Below, piece after piece: positions 2,236 to 47,411 of a stretch of DNA of 64,000 nucleotides. Under the pieces are notes generated by a model. That model was not told the DNA's origin. It did no database searches and saw only the letters and a list, made by a program, of their open reading frames with translations. This stretch comes from Candidatus Bathyarchaeia archaeon (GTDB lineage: Archaea; Thermoproteota; Bathyarchaeia; 40CM-2-53-6). Positions within the stretch are counted from its first letter, which is position 1. Every line of letters starts with the position of its first letter. Where the stretch lies: the NCBI GenBank assembly GCA_035935655.1, contig DASYWW010000062.1:203859-267858 (forward strand). The letters run 5' to 3'. The translations under genes were made by a program, and so were the position numbers.

Positions 2236-3501
2236 TCAGTTTGACGCTGCAATTGCTTTGCTAAGCCGTAGACTCATGCCGATCGCTGGTATAATCATGA
2301 CGGTCGAGGCCATAAATGAGAGACTGTAGATCCCGAAGGTAGCGCCGTAGCCAAAGAGCGAGTTGCCTAGGGTCGGACCGATGATCTCTGAGATGCTTTG
2401 CGCCGACTGAGTCATACCGAGGGCTCCACCCTGCTGTTGGGCTGATACCCTGAGAGAAACAATCGCACTAGCTGTCGCGAAGATAATTCCGGACCCGAAC
2501 GCAAGTATGGTTAGGGATCCGAGGAGAACTAGTAGGCTGTAGGCTGTCGTGAAAAACAGGGCAAAGCTGGCCGCCGTCGCAATGATTCCGATGAGGAACA
2601 GTTGTTCTGGCTGGAACTTTTTCGAGAGTCTGGGAATCGCTACTCCTTGGGATATTGCTAGGACAATGCCGACGAGGAAGAAGAGCAATCCGACTTGGAA
2701 CGGACCGAATGAGGCAACTTGCTGCAGCCAAGGCGTCGCGGTGCTTATCGAGACGTTGAAGGCGATCAGCGCGACTAAGTAGGTTACGAACAGTAGTTTC
2801 AGATCTGTCCTGGTCGCGATGGTGCGTACAGTCTCTTTTAGCGAGGGTCTTGTTTCTAGGTTCCTCTTAGGCGGCTCGGGGAGTCGGAAGTATCCTAGCG
2901 CTAGGTTCGAGAACGCGAGCGCTGCGGCGATGAACGAGGGAACTGCATAGCCGTAGAGGCTGCTCAGTGTTCCGCCGATTGCAGGTCCGATGATGAAGCC
3001 GAGGCCGAATGCTGCGCCCATCATTCCCATGTACTTCAGTCGAGTCTCTTTGGATGTGATGTCGGCGATGTACGCATTCGCCACTGGGAATGCTGCTCCT
3101 AAGGAGCCTGCGACTATTCTTGCAACGAAGAGTAGCCAGAGGCTGTTCGCGAGGCCGAAGACGAGCAACGATATTCCCGTGCCTGAAAGAGAGAGGAGGA
3201 GGATTCGTCGGCGGCCGTGTCGGTCGCTAAGGCTGCCTAGTATTGGGGTGAAGATGAACTGCATGAGACTGTATGAGGTCAAGAGGAGGCCGTAGACCAG
3301 AGGCGTGGCGCCTAGACTCTTTGCGTAGAAGAAGATGTACGGGAGGACAATTGAGAAGCCTAGAAAATCAAGGAAGACGGTGAGGAAGAGAACAGAGAAG
3401 ATTGACCGTTGGACTATTGACTGCGAAGTGTCGAGTTGAGTTACAAGTTTCTGTGCTTCAATGTTTTCCGTGAGTGTTTTTCCACTTTCCATTTTTCCCA
3501 C
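2236..3501 (-). CDS. MFS transporter (421 aa, about 12 TM)
   Basis: Hydropathy pattern and an MFS motif-A-like loop (LSDRHGRRRILL). Confidence 0.85.
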   Translation of the reverse strand: MGKMESGKTLTENIEAQKLVTQLDTSQSIVQRSIFSVLFLTVFLDFLGFSIVLPYIFFYAKSLGATPLVYGLLLTSYSLMQFIFTPILGSLSDRHGRRRILLLSLSGTGISLLVFGLANSLWLLFVARIVAGSLGAAFPVANAYIADITSKETRLKYMGMMGAAFGLGFIIGPAIGGTLSSLYGYAVPSFIAAALAFSNLALGYFRLPEPPKRNLETRPSLKETVRTIATRTDLKLLFVTYLVALIAFNVSISTATPWLQQVASFGPFQVGLLFFLVGIVLAISQGVAIPRLSKKFQPEQLFLIGIIATAASFALFFTTAYSLLVLLGSLTILAFGSGIIFATASAIVSLRVSAQQQGGALGMTQSAQSISEIIGPTLGNSLFGYGATFGIYSLSFMASTVMIIPAIGMSLRLSKAIAASN

Positions 3502-19038: not shown

Positions 19039-19932
19039 GTGACCCTTCTACTAGCCTGTCTCTACGGAAGTGGCGCCCTCCTGGTTCGGGACTATGCCCG
19101 GCGATGGCGGAAGGGTTGGCGGTCCATCCTGATCCTCGGTGCCGCTTACGGAATAATCGAGGAGGGAATAATGGTCCGCAGCTTCTTTAGCCCCACATGG
19201 AAAGATCTTGGACTACTAGCAACTTACGGACGCTGGCTAGGGACAAACTGGGTCTGGACCGAATGGCTCTCAATCTACCATGCAATCTTCAGCATCACCA
19301 TCCCCATCTTCCTTGTCGAACTGACTTATCCGCAATCCAAGACTCGGATATGGCTCTCGTCAAGAATGCGTATCCTTTTTCACGGGCTACTGGTTCTCGC
19401 GATAATTCTTGGGTTCTTCGCCTTCCCATATGATCCTGGTGTGCTCGCTACAGCAGGTTGCATCGCAGCAGTTGTTGGACTAGGCTGGCTGGCGAAGAAG
19501 ATCCCGAATATTTCTCCCACGCAGCGAAATCTCAGAGTATCATGGAAGATACTCATACCGCTCGGATTCTCTGTGCCGACAATTTTCTTCTTCCTCTTCA
19601 CCAGCGCAATAATCCCCCTTGCCATTGGGACAATGATCGTTGGAGCGATTCTCGTTCTAGGCTACGAGAGATTGTTAACTAGATGGGCGAAGGTGGGATT
19701 CAGTGACCTCCAGAAGCTGGGACTAATGACCGGCGCACTCGGCTTCTTCGCAGCCTTCTTCGACTTCATCCTCGAAACTATAGGACGACTGGGAACAAGC
19801 GCTCTCGGAGTCGCCTTCATCATCTATCTCCTCTGGATAAGAAAGAAGATCATCCTACAACTTCCGCAGAAACAGTCCTTCGTTCAACTAGGATCTGGAA
19901 TGCCCGAGCCCCGCGAGCCCGGGCTAAGATAG
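19039..19932 (+). CDS. Polytopic membrane protein of unknown function (about 8 TM); start uncertain, since the in-frame upstream translation is also hydrophobic
   Basis: Hydropathy only. Confidence 0.45.
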   Translation: MTLLLACLYGSGALLVRDYARRWRKGWRSILILGAAYGIIEEGIMVRSFFSPTWKDLGLLATYGRWLGTNWVWTEWLSIYHAIFSITIPIFLVELTYPQSKTRIWLSSRMRILFHGLLVLAIILGFFAFPYDPGVLATAGCIAAVVGLGWLAKKIPNISPTQRNLRVSWKILIPLGFSVPTIFFFLFTSAIIPLAIGTMIVGAILVLGYERLLTRWAKVGFSDLQKLGLMTGALGFFAAFFDFILETIGRLGTSALGVAFIIYLLWIRKKIILQLPQKQSFVQLGSGMPEPREPGLR

Positions 19933-20163
19933 CTCCGTGAAGAAAGATCTTGAACTTGCTAGCCCATTTTTGACGATCTTTTTTCCAAACATTCTTTTTC
20001 ATTGGGGCCCCGGGGTGGTCGAATTTCGCGTGCCCGCGCCCTTCATGAAACGCGGATGCGCGGTGCAGAGACCCTAGGTAGGTCTGTAGCCAGATAGCTT
20101 CAAAACCCGGAAAACTCCCTAAAACTGGCAGGAATCGCCCAAACTCGGCGAGAATGGAATGTG

Positions 20164-20170
20164 TTATATA
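20164..20170 (+). promoter_or_regulatory. TATA-box-like element (TTATATA) about 31-37 bp upstream of the ATG of gene 20201..20602
   Basis: AT-rich heptamer in an otherwise GC-balanced leader. It is duplicated in the paralogous leader. Confidence 0.4.
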
Positions 20171-20200
20171 GAGTCCAATCGAGTCAAACCTTGACCAGAA

Positions 20201-20602
20201 ATGGGCGATAAACCAACAGCAGCAATGGTCCTATCTCTCATCGGTGGAATATTCGTAATCCTCGGAGGCGCGTTCATCGCCTTCGTCGGCTCCCTAGTCT
20301 CATCCTTCGGCTACCTAGCCAACGGCGGCTCAAGCGGAGGCGCTGCCGTCACCGCCTTCGGAGTCGTCGGAATCATTATGGGGCTCATTATGATCGTCGG
20401 CTCATTCATGCTCTACTCTAAGCCAACCAACGCCAAGATGTGGGGAATCATCATCCTCATCCTCTCGATCCTAAGCTGGGTCACAGCCGTCGGGGGGCTC
20501 GTCATAGGATTCATCCTTGGTCTAATCGGAGGCATATTGGCAATCATGTACAAGCCGTCTACTGCTTCGGCAACACCTCCTCCCGCCCCAATGGGCTCTT
20601 AG
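20201..20602 (+). CDS. Small 4-TM membrane protein, paralog A (133 aa)
   Basis: About 75% identical over about 120 aa to the ORF at 20747. Four hydrophobic helices, Gly-rich. Confidence 0.6.
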   Translation: MGDKPTAAMVLSLIGGIFVILGGAFIAFVGSLVSSFGYLANGGSSGGAAVTAFGVVGIIMGLIMIVGSFMLYSKPTNAKMWGIIILILSILSWVTAVGGLVIGFILGLIGGILAIMYKPSTASATPPPAPMGS

Positions 20603-20707
20603 ATTTTTCAATCCAAGAAACCGTGGAATCTAGCTAGATCGGTTCAAAACCGGAAAAGCCCCGCAAATCTCGCGGGAATCGCTCAAACTCGGCAGGAACG
20701 GAATATG

Positions 20708-20716
20708 TTAAATATA
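20708..20716 (+). promoter_or_regulatory. TATA-box-like element (TTAAATATA) about 31-39 bp upstream of the ATG of gene 20747..21253
   Basis: Positional and sequence counterpart of the 20164 element within the duplicated leader. Confidence 0.4.
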
Positions 20717-20746
20717 CTGTGAACTCGTGGTCGAGCTTGACGAGAA

Positions 20747-21253
20747 ATGAGCGATAAACCGACAGCCGCGATGGTACTTTCACTCATCGGAGGAATATTC
20801 GTAATCATAGGTGGAGCCTTCATTGCATTCGTGGGCTCGCTAATTGGCTCGCTCAACATCGCAGGAGCATCATCGGCTAGCAATACAGCACTCGCCTTGG
20901 GAGTAGTCGGCATAATCATGGGACTCATCATGATCGTGGGAGCATTCATGATGTACTCCAAACCAACCAGCACCAAGATGTGGGGCGTTATCGTCTTGAT
21001 ACTCTCAATAGTCAGCTGGGTTACAGCAGTCGGAGGACTTTTCATCGGCTTCCTTCTCGGATTAATCGGCGGCATACTCGCCCTAACATTCAAGCCGACA
21101 ATGGCTCCAGGCGCCATGCCACCGCCAATGATGAGTTCGTCAATGCCGATGGGCTCGGCACCAATGGGATCGATGGGAATGACCTGCAAGAACTGCGGTG
21201 CAAGCATTCCTGCTGGAGCAACGCGTTGCCCGAGCTGCGGCGCGAATCTATAA
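20747..21253 (+). CDS. Small 4-TM membrane protein, paralog B, with Met/Pro-rich linker and C-terminal zinc ribbon (168 aa)
   Basis: N-terminal 120 aa are paralogous to 20201..20602. C-terminus is TCKNCGASIPAGATRCPSCGANL (CxxC-x10-CxxC). Confidence 0.6.
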   Translation: MSDKPTAAMVLSLIGGIFVIIGGAFIAFVGSLIGSLNIAGASSASNTALALGVVGIIMGLIMIVGAFMMYSKPTSTKMWGVIVLILSIVSWVTAVGGLFIGFLLGLIGGILALTFKPTMAPGAMPPPMMSSSMPMGSAPMGSMGMTCKNCGASIPAGATRCPSCGANL

Positions 21254-21391
21254 TGGAAACCAACCTTTCGTTTCCAGCATTCGAAACAAAACGCACGATT
21301 TTCTAGTGCCAACGTCTCTAATTTCACTAGCCGTGCTGGAGAATAGTAACAGTGGGCTTAACACCTCGACGGTAAAGACATCTTTTCTGTC

Positions 21392-22027
21392 ATGATGCAG
21401 AAGCCTCCGCGGCCAATCGGCATTACGCTTCTCGCTATTATTGAGATCCTAATCGGCGTTCTCGGACTTTTAGCCAGCATCGCCATAATCGGCGTGTCTG
21501 CCCTGTTTGCAACCATCCCCACAATCGGAGCTATCCTCGGCACTGTCGGGCTTGTCATAGGTGGAATATTCCTAGTCTTCAGCTTGATCTGGCTGGCAAC
21601 CGGCGTGGGGTTTCTCCACGGACGAGGCTGGGCGTGGAACCTCGGAATGTTCTTCACAGTTATCTCCATCCTTGGCGCCGCGTATGTGGCCTACATCGGA
21701 ATCTACCAAGCCGCCTACGCGCTAGTCTTCTGGATCATCATGATGATCTACCTCACAAGATCACATGTGAAAGTCTTCTTTGGCAAAGGAACCACAACAA
21801 CCTACATGCCTGCAATGAACATGCAACAGACAATGAGAAACGCCCCAACCCTCCAATCACAAACTCAGTACGCTCCGACCGCGCCGCCAGCACTGCAGTA
21901 CACATCTGCCGCTTCGATACCATCATCAACGCCACCCGTAGCTATCGCAACCGGAAAGTGTCGGTCCTGCGGCATGCCCCTGACCGCAGGCAACTCGTTC
22001 TGCACTAACTGCGGCGCCAAACAGTAG
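21392..22027 (+). CDS. 4-TM membrane protein with C-terminal zinc ribbon (211 aa)
   Basis: Hydropathy; C-terminus KCRSCGMPLTAGNSFCTNCGAKQ. Confidence 0.55.
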   Translation: MMQKPPRPIGITLLAIIEILIGVLGLLASIAIIGVSALFATIPTIGAILGTVGLVIGGIFLVFSLIWLATGVGFLHGRGWAWNLGMFFTVISILGAAYVAYIGIYQAAYALVFWIIMMIYLTRSHVKVFFGKGTTTTYMPAMNMQQTMRNAPTLQSQTQYAPTAPPALQYTSAASIPSSTPPVAIATGKCRSCGMPLTAGNSFCTNCGAKQ

Positions 22028-46712: not shown

Positions 46713-47411
46713 TTACTGGTGGGCGCCGCAGGTAGGACAATTAGTCGCATTCGAATCCATTAGTCCGGTACAGTACTTGCAGCGGACCTTCACTGATGGT
46801 GCTTGCTGTTGTTGCGGTGGAACACCGTATCCTGGTTGACCATAGCCTTGGTAGCCTTGATTCATTGGCGGCATTCCATAGCCAGGATTTGGTTGATAGC
46901 CGGGGTTTGGTCCATAGCCTGCCGGCATTGGTCCCGGTCCATATCCCACGTTCATGGGCGGTCCATATGTGCTTGCTGGGACGAATGCGATTTGGGTCTC
47001 ATTGGTGAGGTCGGGTCTGCCATGTGTCTCTAAGACCGCTTTCAATAGGTTCTGAACAGAGGATCCGCCCCGGGTCGGTCTGCACGGAGGAATGCCGACG
47101 CTGAAAGGGAATGTTTGTGCTGGCCCCTTTCCGAAATCAGTTGGCCCGGTAACTTGCACATCACGTTGGTAGAGATTATTTGTGCGGCGCTGGTTCTCTT
47201 GGACTCTTTGGTTGTTGGGGAGAGTTATCCAGACCATCTCGTTCCAGCTTTCAACCACGCGCGCTTCTACCTTCACTCCTTTGGATTGGATGTATTCTTC
47301 TGCTTCGATGTTGATCTTACCCACAACCGGCTCCCCCTCTTGGAAGGTGGCCTTATCAAGGCTGATCCATATCTTACCTTTTGGATGAGTAAGGTGACTC
47401 AATAGGCCCAT
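46713..47411 (-). CDS. Protein with a beta-rich N-terminal domain, a Gly/Tyr/Pro/Gln-rich low-complexity region and a C-terminal zinc ribbon (232 aa)
   Basis: GYGPGPMPAGYGPNPGYQPNPGYGMPPMNQGYQGYGQPGYGVPPQQQ, followed by CKYCTGLMDSNATNCPTCGAHQ. Confidence 0.55.
   Translation of the reverse strand: MGLLSHLTHPKGKIWISLDKATFQEGEPVVGKINIEAEEYIQSKGVKVEARVVESWNEMVWITLPNNQRVQENQRRTNNLYQRDVQVTGPTDFGKGPAQTFPFSVGIPPCRPTRGGSSVQNLLKAVLETHGRPDLTNETQIAFVPASTYGPPMNVGYGPGPMPAGYGPNPGYQPNPGYGMPPMNQGYQGYGQPGYGVPPQQQQAPSVKVRCKYCTGLMDSNATNCPTCGAHQ

Follow-up and report, generated by a model that had tools for sequence, protein, structure and literature searches.

How old is a pair of adjacent genes that share both their upstream DNA and most of their coding sequence, which of the two forms came first, and are both of them working genes? 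These questions are raised by two small membrane-protein genes lying head to tail on the forward strand of a 64,000-nucleotide stretch of the genome of a Candidatus Bathyarchaeia archaeon (contig DASYWW010000062.1, positions 203,859 to 267,858; hereafter the window, whose own numbering is used throughout). The upstream gene, copy A, has no zinc ribbon, and the downstream gene, copy B, carries one at its C-terminus (Table 1). A preliminary description, made from the sequence alone, took them for a recent duplication of a gene together with its promoter. We compared the locus with 89 related loci, identified below by L numbers, from soil Bathyarchaeia metagenome-assembled genomes and metagenomes. 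A and B are probably an ancient tandem paralog pair within a Bathyarchaeia subfamily of the DUF4064/DUF6114 four-helix membrane proteins. The repeated unit is a whole transcription unit: some 125 bp of conserved upstream DNA, including a TATA box that is invariant, precede the coding region, which is repeated as far as the middle of the linker. The ancestral gene had both the Met/Pro-rich linker and the C-terminal Cys4 zinc ribbon.

At the DNA level, the locus is a direct head-to-tail tandem repeat with a period of ~545 bp (20076-20599 and 20622-21154). Local alignment of 20087-20557 with 20631-21097 gives 74% identity, and a repeat search finds three ungapped blocks at 540-546 bp spacing, of 84, 138 and 214 nt, with identities of 79%, 77% and 75%, respectively. 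The 84-nt block lies entirely 5' of both start codons. When the two leaders are aligned alone they score 82, against 14.9 +/- 2.3 for shuffled sequences (z=29), and they are 75-79% identical over the ~125 bp preceding the ATGs (75% when gaps are counted). The homology therefore covers non-coding upstream DNA as well as coding DNA, instead of being confined to the latter, and the duplication of the gene with its promoter is borne out. It ends at the stop codon of copy A (20600-20602), which corresponds to codon 137 of B. The segments originally delimited as the two copies (20099-20640 and 20643-21185) do contain the repeat, but each overshoots the homologous part by ~30-40 nt. The sequence 21155-21253 is unique to copy B, whose final 32 codons, encoding part of the linker and the ribbon, have no counterpart in A. 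Within the 64-kb window there are no further copies of either the protein or the leader; a tRNA scan of the window found none, and base composition around the locus shows no anomaly.

The two proteins are 74% identical (E 3e-49), in line with the ~75% estimated earlier. Both exceed the gathering cut-off of DUF6114 (PF19609; A 36.0 and B 39.6 bits, cut-off 27.9) and, narrowly, that of DUF4064 (PF13273; 34.7 and 36.3 bits, cut-off 32.1). Zn_Ribbon_1 (PF13240, cut-off 25 bits) is matched by B, with 28.8 bits. The cysteines of B, at positions 147, 150, 161 and 164, form a CxxC-x10-CxxC motif, and copy A has no cysteine at all, so that the Met/Pro-rich linker with its Cys4 motif belongs to B only, as first described. 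Copy A had been said to end after its fourth helix; the loss of the tail holds, but the endpoint is slightly different, as a 17-residue Pro-rich stub of the linker (..PPPAPMGS) follows helix 4. Both genes are already annotated, A as a 'DUF4064 domain-containing protein' (identical to NCBI protein P0115) and B as a 'zinc ribbon domain-containing protein' (identical to NCBI P0001), and an NCBIfam scan gave no informative match. The family is known and uncharacterised, and as an instance of gene-family evolution the pair is genuine but rather ordinary.

In the AlphaFold2 prediction, copy B has helices at residues 6-35, 42-71, 73-93 and 99-114, where the predicted local distance difference test score (pLDDT) is ~70-83, followed by a disordered linker (residues 116-143) and a zinc ribbon folded as a small beta ribbon. 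The linker has 9 Met and 7 Pro in 32 residues and a pLDDT below 50; in sequence, its composition is reminiscent of Met-rich metal-binding motifs. Loop 2 and the residues directly following helix 4 contain Lys and Arg, which by the positive-inside rule would place both termini, and hence the tail of B, on the inside of the membrane; the tail is thus predicted to be cytoplasmic. The tryptophan W79, within an MWG motif, is invariant in 56 family members. On the opposite strand, a 214-aa open reading frame (ORF; 20683-21327) spans nearly all of copy B, and L023 and L024 have a comparable one antisense to their homologous gene. Most probably it is no gene but a shadow ORF, cast by the Gly/Ile/Leu-rich coding strand.

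Comparison with the related loci indicates which form is ancestral. Synteny is kept, with a glyoxalase gene, sometimes a gene for a 297-aa membrane protein, one or more DUF6114 genes, a further zinc-ribbon gene (gene C, discussed below) and genes for NUDIX, GNAT and methylmalonyl-CoA mutase proteins. The commonest state is a single 168-aa gene with a zinc ribbon. Besides the window, the A+B tandem occurs at L010, L023, L025, L027, L042, L043 and L058, and in partial or variant form at L022, L026 and L052; orthologs of copy A, 133-134 aa long, occur in seven or more further assemblies of Bathyarchaeia. All tandem loci have identical repeat boundaries and the same stop-codon position. Among the 66 loci that are informative, having enough flanking sequence, 59 are without copy A, as are the window's nearest relatives by B (92-93%) and by the NUDIX protein (90%). 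Together with a deletion at L052, considered below, this shows that copy A is dispensable. The Cys4 tail occurs in all full-length homologs inspected, also in distant ones and where Pfam had no precomputed ribbon match. Because every full-length relative has it, the tail is ancestral, and copy A therefore represents a domain loss. Of the 'domain gain or loss' proposed originally, loss in copy A is retained and gain is discarded.

The DNA between the two units keeps no record of how the tail disappeared. The junction has no significant similarity to the DNA encoding the linker and zinc ribbon of B (z -0.1), and a search of the spacer 3' of the copy A stop in seven loci revealed no zinc-ribbon relic (z -0.9 to 2.4), so the tail may either have been left out at the duplication or have been deleted later. 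The run of five T residues directly after the stop of copy A is, judged by its sequence, a possible archaeal terminator; it is not kept at the other tandem loci.

The pair is not recent. Within genomes, the proportion of synonymous differences between A and B (pS) is 0.62-0.81, which is saturated, with a value of 0.63 in the window. Among six tandem loci the mean number of synonymous substitutions per synonymous site (dS) is 0.98 for the A orthologs, near the 0.85 of their B partners. Pairwise dS among the A orthologs ranges from 0.4 to 1.7, so they are distinct sequences and not a single one duplicated by assembly. Purifying selection acts strongly on both copies: the ratio of nonsynonymous to synonymous substitution rates (dN/dS) is 0.04-0.13 for copy A, and the means are 0.085 for A, 0.074 for the core of B and 0.031 for its tail. 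The most constrained part of B is the linker with the ribbon (dN/dS 0.03, with dS unsaturated-to-high), despite the predicted disorder of the linker. Taken together, the synonymous saturation between A and B, the similar dS of the two sets of orthologs and the low dN/dS indicate that copy A is an old, selected gene. These values, and the bootstrap support of only 1-7% for an exclusive clade of A and the B168 genes, contradict a recent duplication, and the supposed recent expansion is better described as an old pair of paralogs, one without and one with the tail, that selection has maintained.

The phylogenetic position of copy A adds a complication. Its orthologs form one clade, which groups with a set of full-length genes here called Z173, with a bootstrap of 95% when loop 1 is included and 37% when it is left out. 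The nearest full-length relatives of copy A are thus the Z173 genes of another Bathyarchaeia lineage and not its neighbour B, so a simple in-situ duplication of the present B is not the whole history, which comprised either an old duplication with differential loss or a recombinational acquisition. The Z173 genes (L023 1065-1586; L024 3239-3760; L028; L029) combine the derived first loop of A, SSFGYLANGG, with a zinc-ribbon tail. At L024, L028 and L029 they are single-copy genes of a divergent lineage with a distant-type leader, and at L023 the Z173 gene lies downstream of copy A, behind a B-type leader. The NUDIX neighbour at Z173 loci is only ~63% identical to that of the window. This pattern suggests recombination between lineages at the locus, or a chimeric contig. 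A second mosaic is L089 (952-1464, protein P0049), a single 170-aa gene that is a chimera of A and B: its leader and first ~75 codons are 100% identical in nucleotide sequence to copy A of L023, and the remainder is of B168 type (96-100% identical to L010/L008), with the switch near the conserved AAGATGTGGGG stretch. It has the form to be expected of an unequal crossover between the repeats, and is either such a collapse of a tandem pair or an artefact of metagenome assembly.

Copy A could accordingly have been acquired by homologous recombination or transfer from a Z173-type Bathyarchaeia lineage, in a manner that mimics tandem duplication, or, as a variant, it could descend from an older duplication with differential loss. 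The grouping with Z173 and the common derived loop speak for such an origin, as do the divergent NUDIX gene of the Z173 loci, the patchy distribution of copy A relative to its flanking genes, the mosaics at L023 and L089, and the poor pair-by-pair correlation between A-A and B-B dS. However, the grouping loses most of its support without loop 1, the leader of copy A is of the native single-copy B168 type and not of the type found in the Z173 lineage, the uniform boundaries and stop position hold for all tandem loci, and the mosaic contigs are short metagenome assemblies that could themselves be chimeric. We regard such an origin, in either form, as possible but unlikely, and retain the ancient tandem paralog pair as the explanation of the locus.

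The upstream DNA was examined in an alignment of 44 non-redundant related leaders. TATA-like elements, TTATATA at 20164-20170 before A and TTAAATATA at 20708-20716 before B, lie 31-39 nt 5' of the ATGs, in agreement with the preliminary description, and fall in invariant columns of the alignment. The blocks TTCAAAAC, GGAAA, AATCG..AAA and GAAT directly before TTA[T/A]ATA are likewise invariant or nearly so, as is GA[C/T] ~8-10 nt before the ATG. The leader is kept upstream of almost all orthologs, and an intact TATA box precedes every copy A. Averaged over pairs, leader identity falls from 0.78 upstream of the TATA box to 0.57 between it and the ATG, whereas synonymous sites between the same genomes, used as a neutral yardstick, are ~0.4-0.55 identical. 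Given the position of the TATA boxes, the two genes would have separate promoters and mRNAs with short leaders (~7-11 nt).

The leaders (~76-79%) are at least as similar to each other as the coding regions, which might mean that they are kept alike by gene conversion, as in concerted evolution, and not by regulatory selection. This is very improbable: the mismatch between A and B leaders is no lower within a genome (0.29) than between genomes (0.28), which rules out gene conversion as the source of the similarity, and the conserved blocks are kept in single-copy genomes, where conversion is impossible. Moreover, the closest matches to each leader are those at the corresponding position in other genomes. 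The B leader of the window lies nearest (mismatch 0.05-0.12) to the leaders of the downstream copy at other tandem loci, and its A leader is nearest to leaders of single-copy genomes (mismatch 0.11). That the conserved 95-125 nt represent a structured RNA (a 5' untranslated region element, a riboswitch or a small RNA gene) or a small upstream ORF, as their unusual length for an archaeal promoter might suggest, is scarcely credible, since RNAalifold found 0 pairs and no covariation in the 44 leaders, Rfam returned nothing at the gathering threshold (one chance match, E 0.54, falls inside the coding region), the conserved part lies 5' of the invariant TATA box and hence 5' of the expected transcription start, and the ATG mini-ORFs vary in frame and length between leaders. 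Conservation above the neutral level, without RNA structure and without gene conversion, points to a selected promoter and operator region. The non-coding leader is constrained and has evolved independently in the two copies, and we read it as promoter and operator DNA that is older than the duplication.

The two leaders also differ at specific sites. The dyad TCGCC-N7-GGCGA is 6.2/8 complementary in single-copy leaders and 6/8 in the A leader of the window, and only 3/8 in the B leader; the dyad CCCGC-N7-GCGGG reaches 5-6/8 in leaders of the B group, as compared with ~2.5 elsewhere. The two dyads are possible alternative operator sites. If so, the copies would have diverged in regulation since the duplication, with both promoters presumably under the same or related DNA-binding regulators. 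A far-upstream quasi-palindrome, AGCYAGATAGCT, was also considered and dropped, as it is only ~3/6 complementary in every leader class. A scan with bacterial-type promoter and terminator models, which are unsuited to an archaeon, gave no more matches than in shuffled sequence. The motif GTTA[T/A]ATA occurs only twice in the 64-kb window, both strands counted, at 20163-20170 and 20707-20714, that is at the A and B promoters only, so the other genes of the window must use different TATA variants.

The preliminary description had itself raised the possibility that copy A is a truncated pseudogene. In that case the tandem would be a recent duplication or copy-number variant and A its decaying, 3'-truncated member, as the missing tail, the absence of A from most relatives and an internal deletion of 156 bp at L052 might suggest. 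The saturated synonymous sites, an ORF that is unbroken and of conserved length in eight assemblies or more, the low dN/dS of A and the intact, invariant TATA box and leader before every copy make this extremely improbable. L052 is ~99% identical to L010 except for the deletion, which has flanking TCA microhomology (L052 ~3395-3400; L010 3239-3396) and removes helix 4 and the stop codon of A, the spacer and the distal edge of the B leader; it is a strain-level variant that is losing copy A.

What might such a pair do? The closest studied relative, and the only one found, is AuxB of Staphylococcus aureus, a DUF4064 membrane scaffold with a tail that is cytoplasmic by experiment (PMC12505970). 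Its membrane domain homodimerises by way of Trp86, a residue highly conserved across DUF4064, and is in equilibrium between this homodimer and a PknB heterodimer; the tail binds GpsB (PMC12505970). A and B have the same DUF4064 four-helix membrane domain. Further likenesses are the cytoplasmic C-terminal tail, which is experimental in AuxB and predicted from charge in B; a highly conserved Trp in the membrane domain, W79 in B, which may correspond to Trp86 of AuxB; and a modular tail that varies between lineages. On the other hand, AuxB comes from a Firmicute and A/B are archaeal, and the tail of B is a Met/Pro linker with a Cys4 ribbon, whereas that of AuxB is long and has a terminal GpsB-binding motif. 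The partners PknB and GpsB are bacterial cell-wall proteins, for which an archaeal counterpart is not expected, and dimerisation and partner binding, known for AuxB, are for A and B proposed by analogy.

By analogy with AuxB, the four-helix domain would dimerise in the membrane through the invariant Trp of the MWG motif, and B would be a dimerising scaffold whose cytoplasmic zinc-ribbon tail recruits a partner. Dimers containing the tail-less A, whether A-A or A-B, would carry fewer tails, by which A would tune the output of B or compete with it. Copy A may be a tail-less dimerisation partner of copy B.

The pair resembles known systems in other respects as well. DUF6114 and DUF4064 have been assigned to the Pfam tetraspanin clan (PMC12505970). 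A and B score above the curated cut-offs and have four predicted transmembrane helices; unlike tetraspanins, A and B have no large extracellular loop, and their fold matches are not significant. Zn_Ribbon_1 tails on small membrane proteins are represented by the CxxC-x10-CxxC motif that closes the C-terminal end of B and of the presumably unrelated C; copy A is without one. In the subfunctionalisation model, tandem duplicates retain their promoter and later come to differ in how they are regulated and which domains they carry. A and B agree with it in that the whole unit was duplicated, both copies are under selection, A is minus a domain and the promoters differ at specific sites, the difference being that the promoter divergence of A and B is read from the DNA.

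Besides the affinity of copy A with Z173, several points weigh against the account given here. The model of dimerisation and tail recruitment is drawn from one bacterial relative, in another domain of life. The two promoters and short leaders are deduced from spacing, and the dyad differences, observed in a handful of close leaders, may reflect one historical event, because the downstream leaders are near relatives of one another. The structure predicted for B by AlphaFold2 is of moderate confidence (mean pLDDT 67), and its comparison with the PDB by Foldseek gave nothing significant (E >= 0.5, TM-score <= 0.49), the matches of highest probability being generic four-helix membrane proteins (p22phox, uroplakin tetraspanins and synaptogyrin).

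The loss of the tail has parallels in the wider family. When 1.84 billion cluster representatives were searched with a profile, 2,277 relatives with E <= 1e-3 were identified, of which 701 have E <= 1e-10. Among the best 148 new representatives, the Cys4 motif is C-terminal in 83, N-terminal in 2 and absent from 63 (a few of which are fragments), so presence or absence of the tail is recurrent in the family and not peculiar to the A/B locus. In P0209 and P0244, which are distant family members, the ribbon is N-terminal, indicating that it has been joined to the four-helix domain more than once. The zinc-ribbon tail of the DUF4064/DUF6114 family is thus a module that is repeatedly present or absent.

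A similar arrangement is found in gene C, which accompanies B at every syntenic locus. This gene, starting at 21392, had been described as non-paralogous to A and B, and it probably does belong to a different four-helix family; Zn_Ribbon_1 is its only Pfam match. Profiles of the B and C families compare with 73% probability at 16% identity, a result to be read with the compositional bias of transmembrane helices in mind. In most relatives another gene, X (169 aa, with a weak DUF7144 match), lies between B and C (L001 4510-5019; L011, L055, L057 and others) and starts 3-6 nt after the B stop. X is a tail-less paralog of C, with which it has in common an MQPKPPRP N-terminus and the motifs GKGWAW and HVKVFFGKG. 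It is absent from the window, where the spacer between B and C is 21254-21391. The presence of A and that of X are not anticorrelated, as all four combinations of presence and absence occur. The locus therefore holds two families, each with a constant tailed form and an optional tail-less paralog just upstream. A more ambitious proposal, which we consider quite improbable, is that these form a modular system, in which tail-less A and X would heterodimerise with tailed B and C and set the number of displayed Met-rich/zinc-ribbon tails, and in which the ~95-bp upstream module with its alternative dyads would serve as the operators for a so far undescribed regulator of Bathyarchaeia, switching between the two promoters.

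To our knowledge, almost nothing is known about gene regulation in Bathyarchaeia. The ~95-125 bp upstream region is a candidate cis-regulatory element from uncultured soil members of the group, under clear purifying selection. In addition, the natural pair of a tail-less and a tailed protein offers a simple test of whether the dimerising-scaffold mechanism of AuxB is general to the family. The practical value of the locus is modest, its chief by-products being the constrained upstream region and the recurring pattern of tail-less and tailed paralogs. The coordinates of the features are given in Table 1.

Table 1. Features of the A/B locus and of gene C, in window coordinates
Feature	Position	Strand	Evidence or remark
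Copy-A leader: conserved control region, TATA box, short predicted 5' untranslated region	20076-20200	+	Homology to 20622-20746
Copy-A leader blocks	TTCAAAAC 20099-20106; AATCG 20133-20137; GAATGTG-TTATATA 20157-20170	+	44-leader alignment
Copy-A dyad TCGCC-N7-GGCGA (possible operator)	20135-20151	+	6/8 complementary
Copy A: 133-aa four-helix DUF6114/DUF4064 membrane protein, without zinc ribbon	20201-20602	+	Pfam
Junction between repeat units	20603-20621	+	Unique sequence; T5 run 20604-20608 right after the A stop
Copy-B leader, architecture as in A	20622-20746	+	Repeat and leader alignment
Copy-B leader blocks	TTCAAAAC 20643-20650; AATCG 20677-20681; TATA TTAAATATA 20708-20716	+	Leader alignment
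Copy-B dyad CCCGC-N7-GCGGG (possible operator)	20660-20676	+	TCGCC-N7-GGCGA of B degraded to 3/8
Copy B: 168-aa DUF6114/DUF4064 protein with linker and Cys4 zinc ribbon	20747-21253	+	Pfam, AlphaFold2
Copy B linker, Met/Pro-rich	21089-21184 (residues 115-146)	+	Sequence
Copy B Cys4 zinc ribbon	21185-21250 (residues 147-168)	+	Pfam
Gene C: 211-aa four-helix membrane protein with Met/Pro/Gln-rich linker and CxxC-x10-CxxC ribbon	21392-22027	+	Pfam Zn_Ribbon_1 only

Turnover at the locus is not limited to A and X. Upstream of copy A, the window encodes the 297-aa multi-pass membrane protein (19039-19932, forward strand), a relative of which has a weak AF_0692 match. The gene is intact in some relatives, reduced to a remnant of 57-92 aa in L008, L011 and L035, and absent from L004. 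The interval between the glyoxalase and NUDIX genes is a turnover hotspot for small membrane-protein genes. Elsewhere in the window, an ORF of 231-232 aa on the reverse strand (46713-47411) has a C-terminal zinc-ribbon-like motif (weak DZR and Zn_ribbon matches), and its N-terminal half is weakly similar to Arrestin_N and Spo0M.

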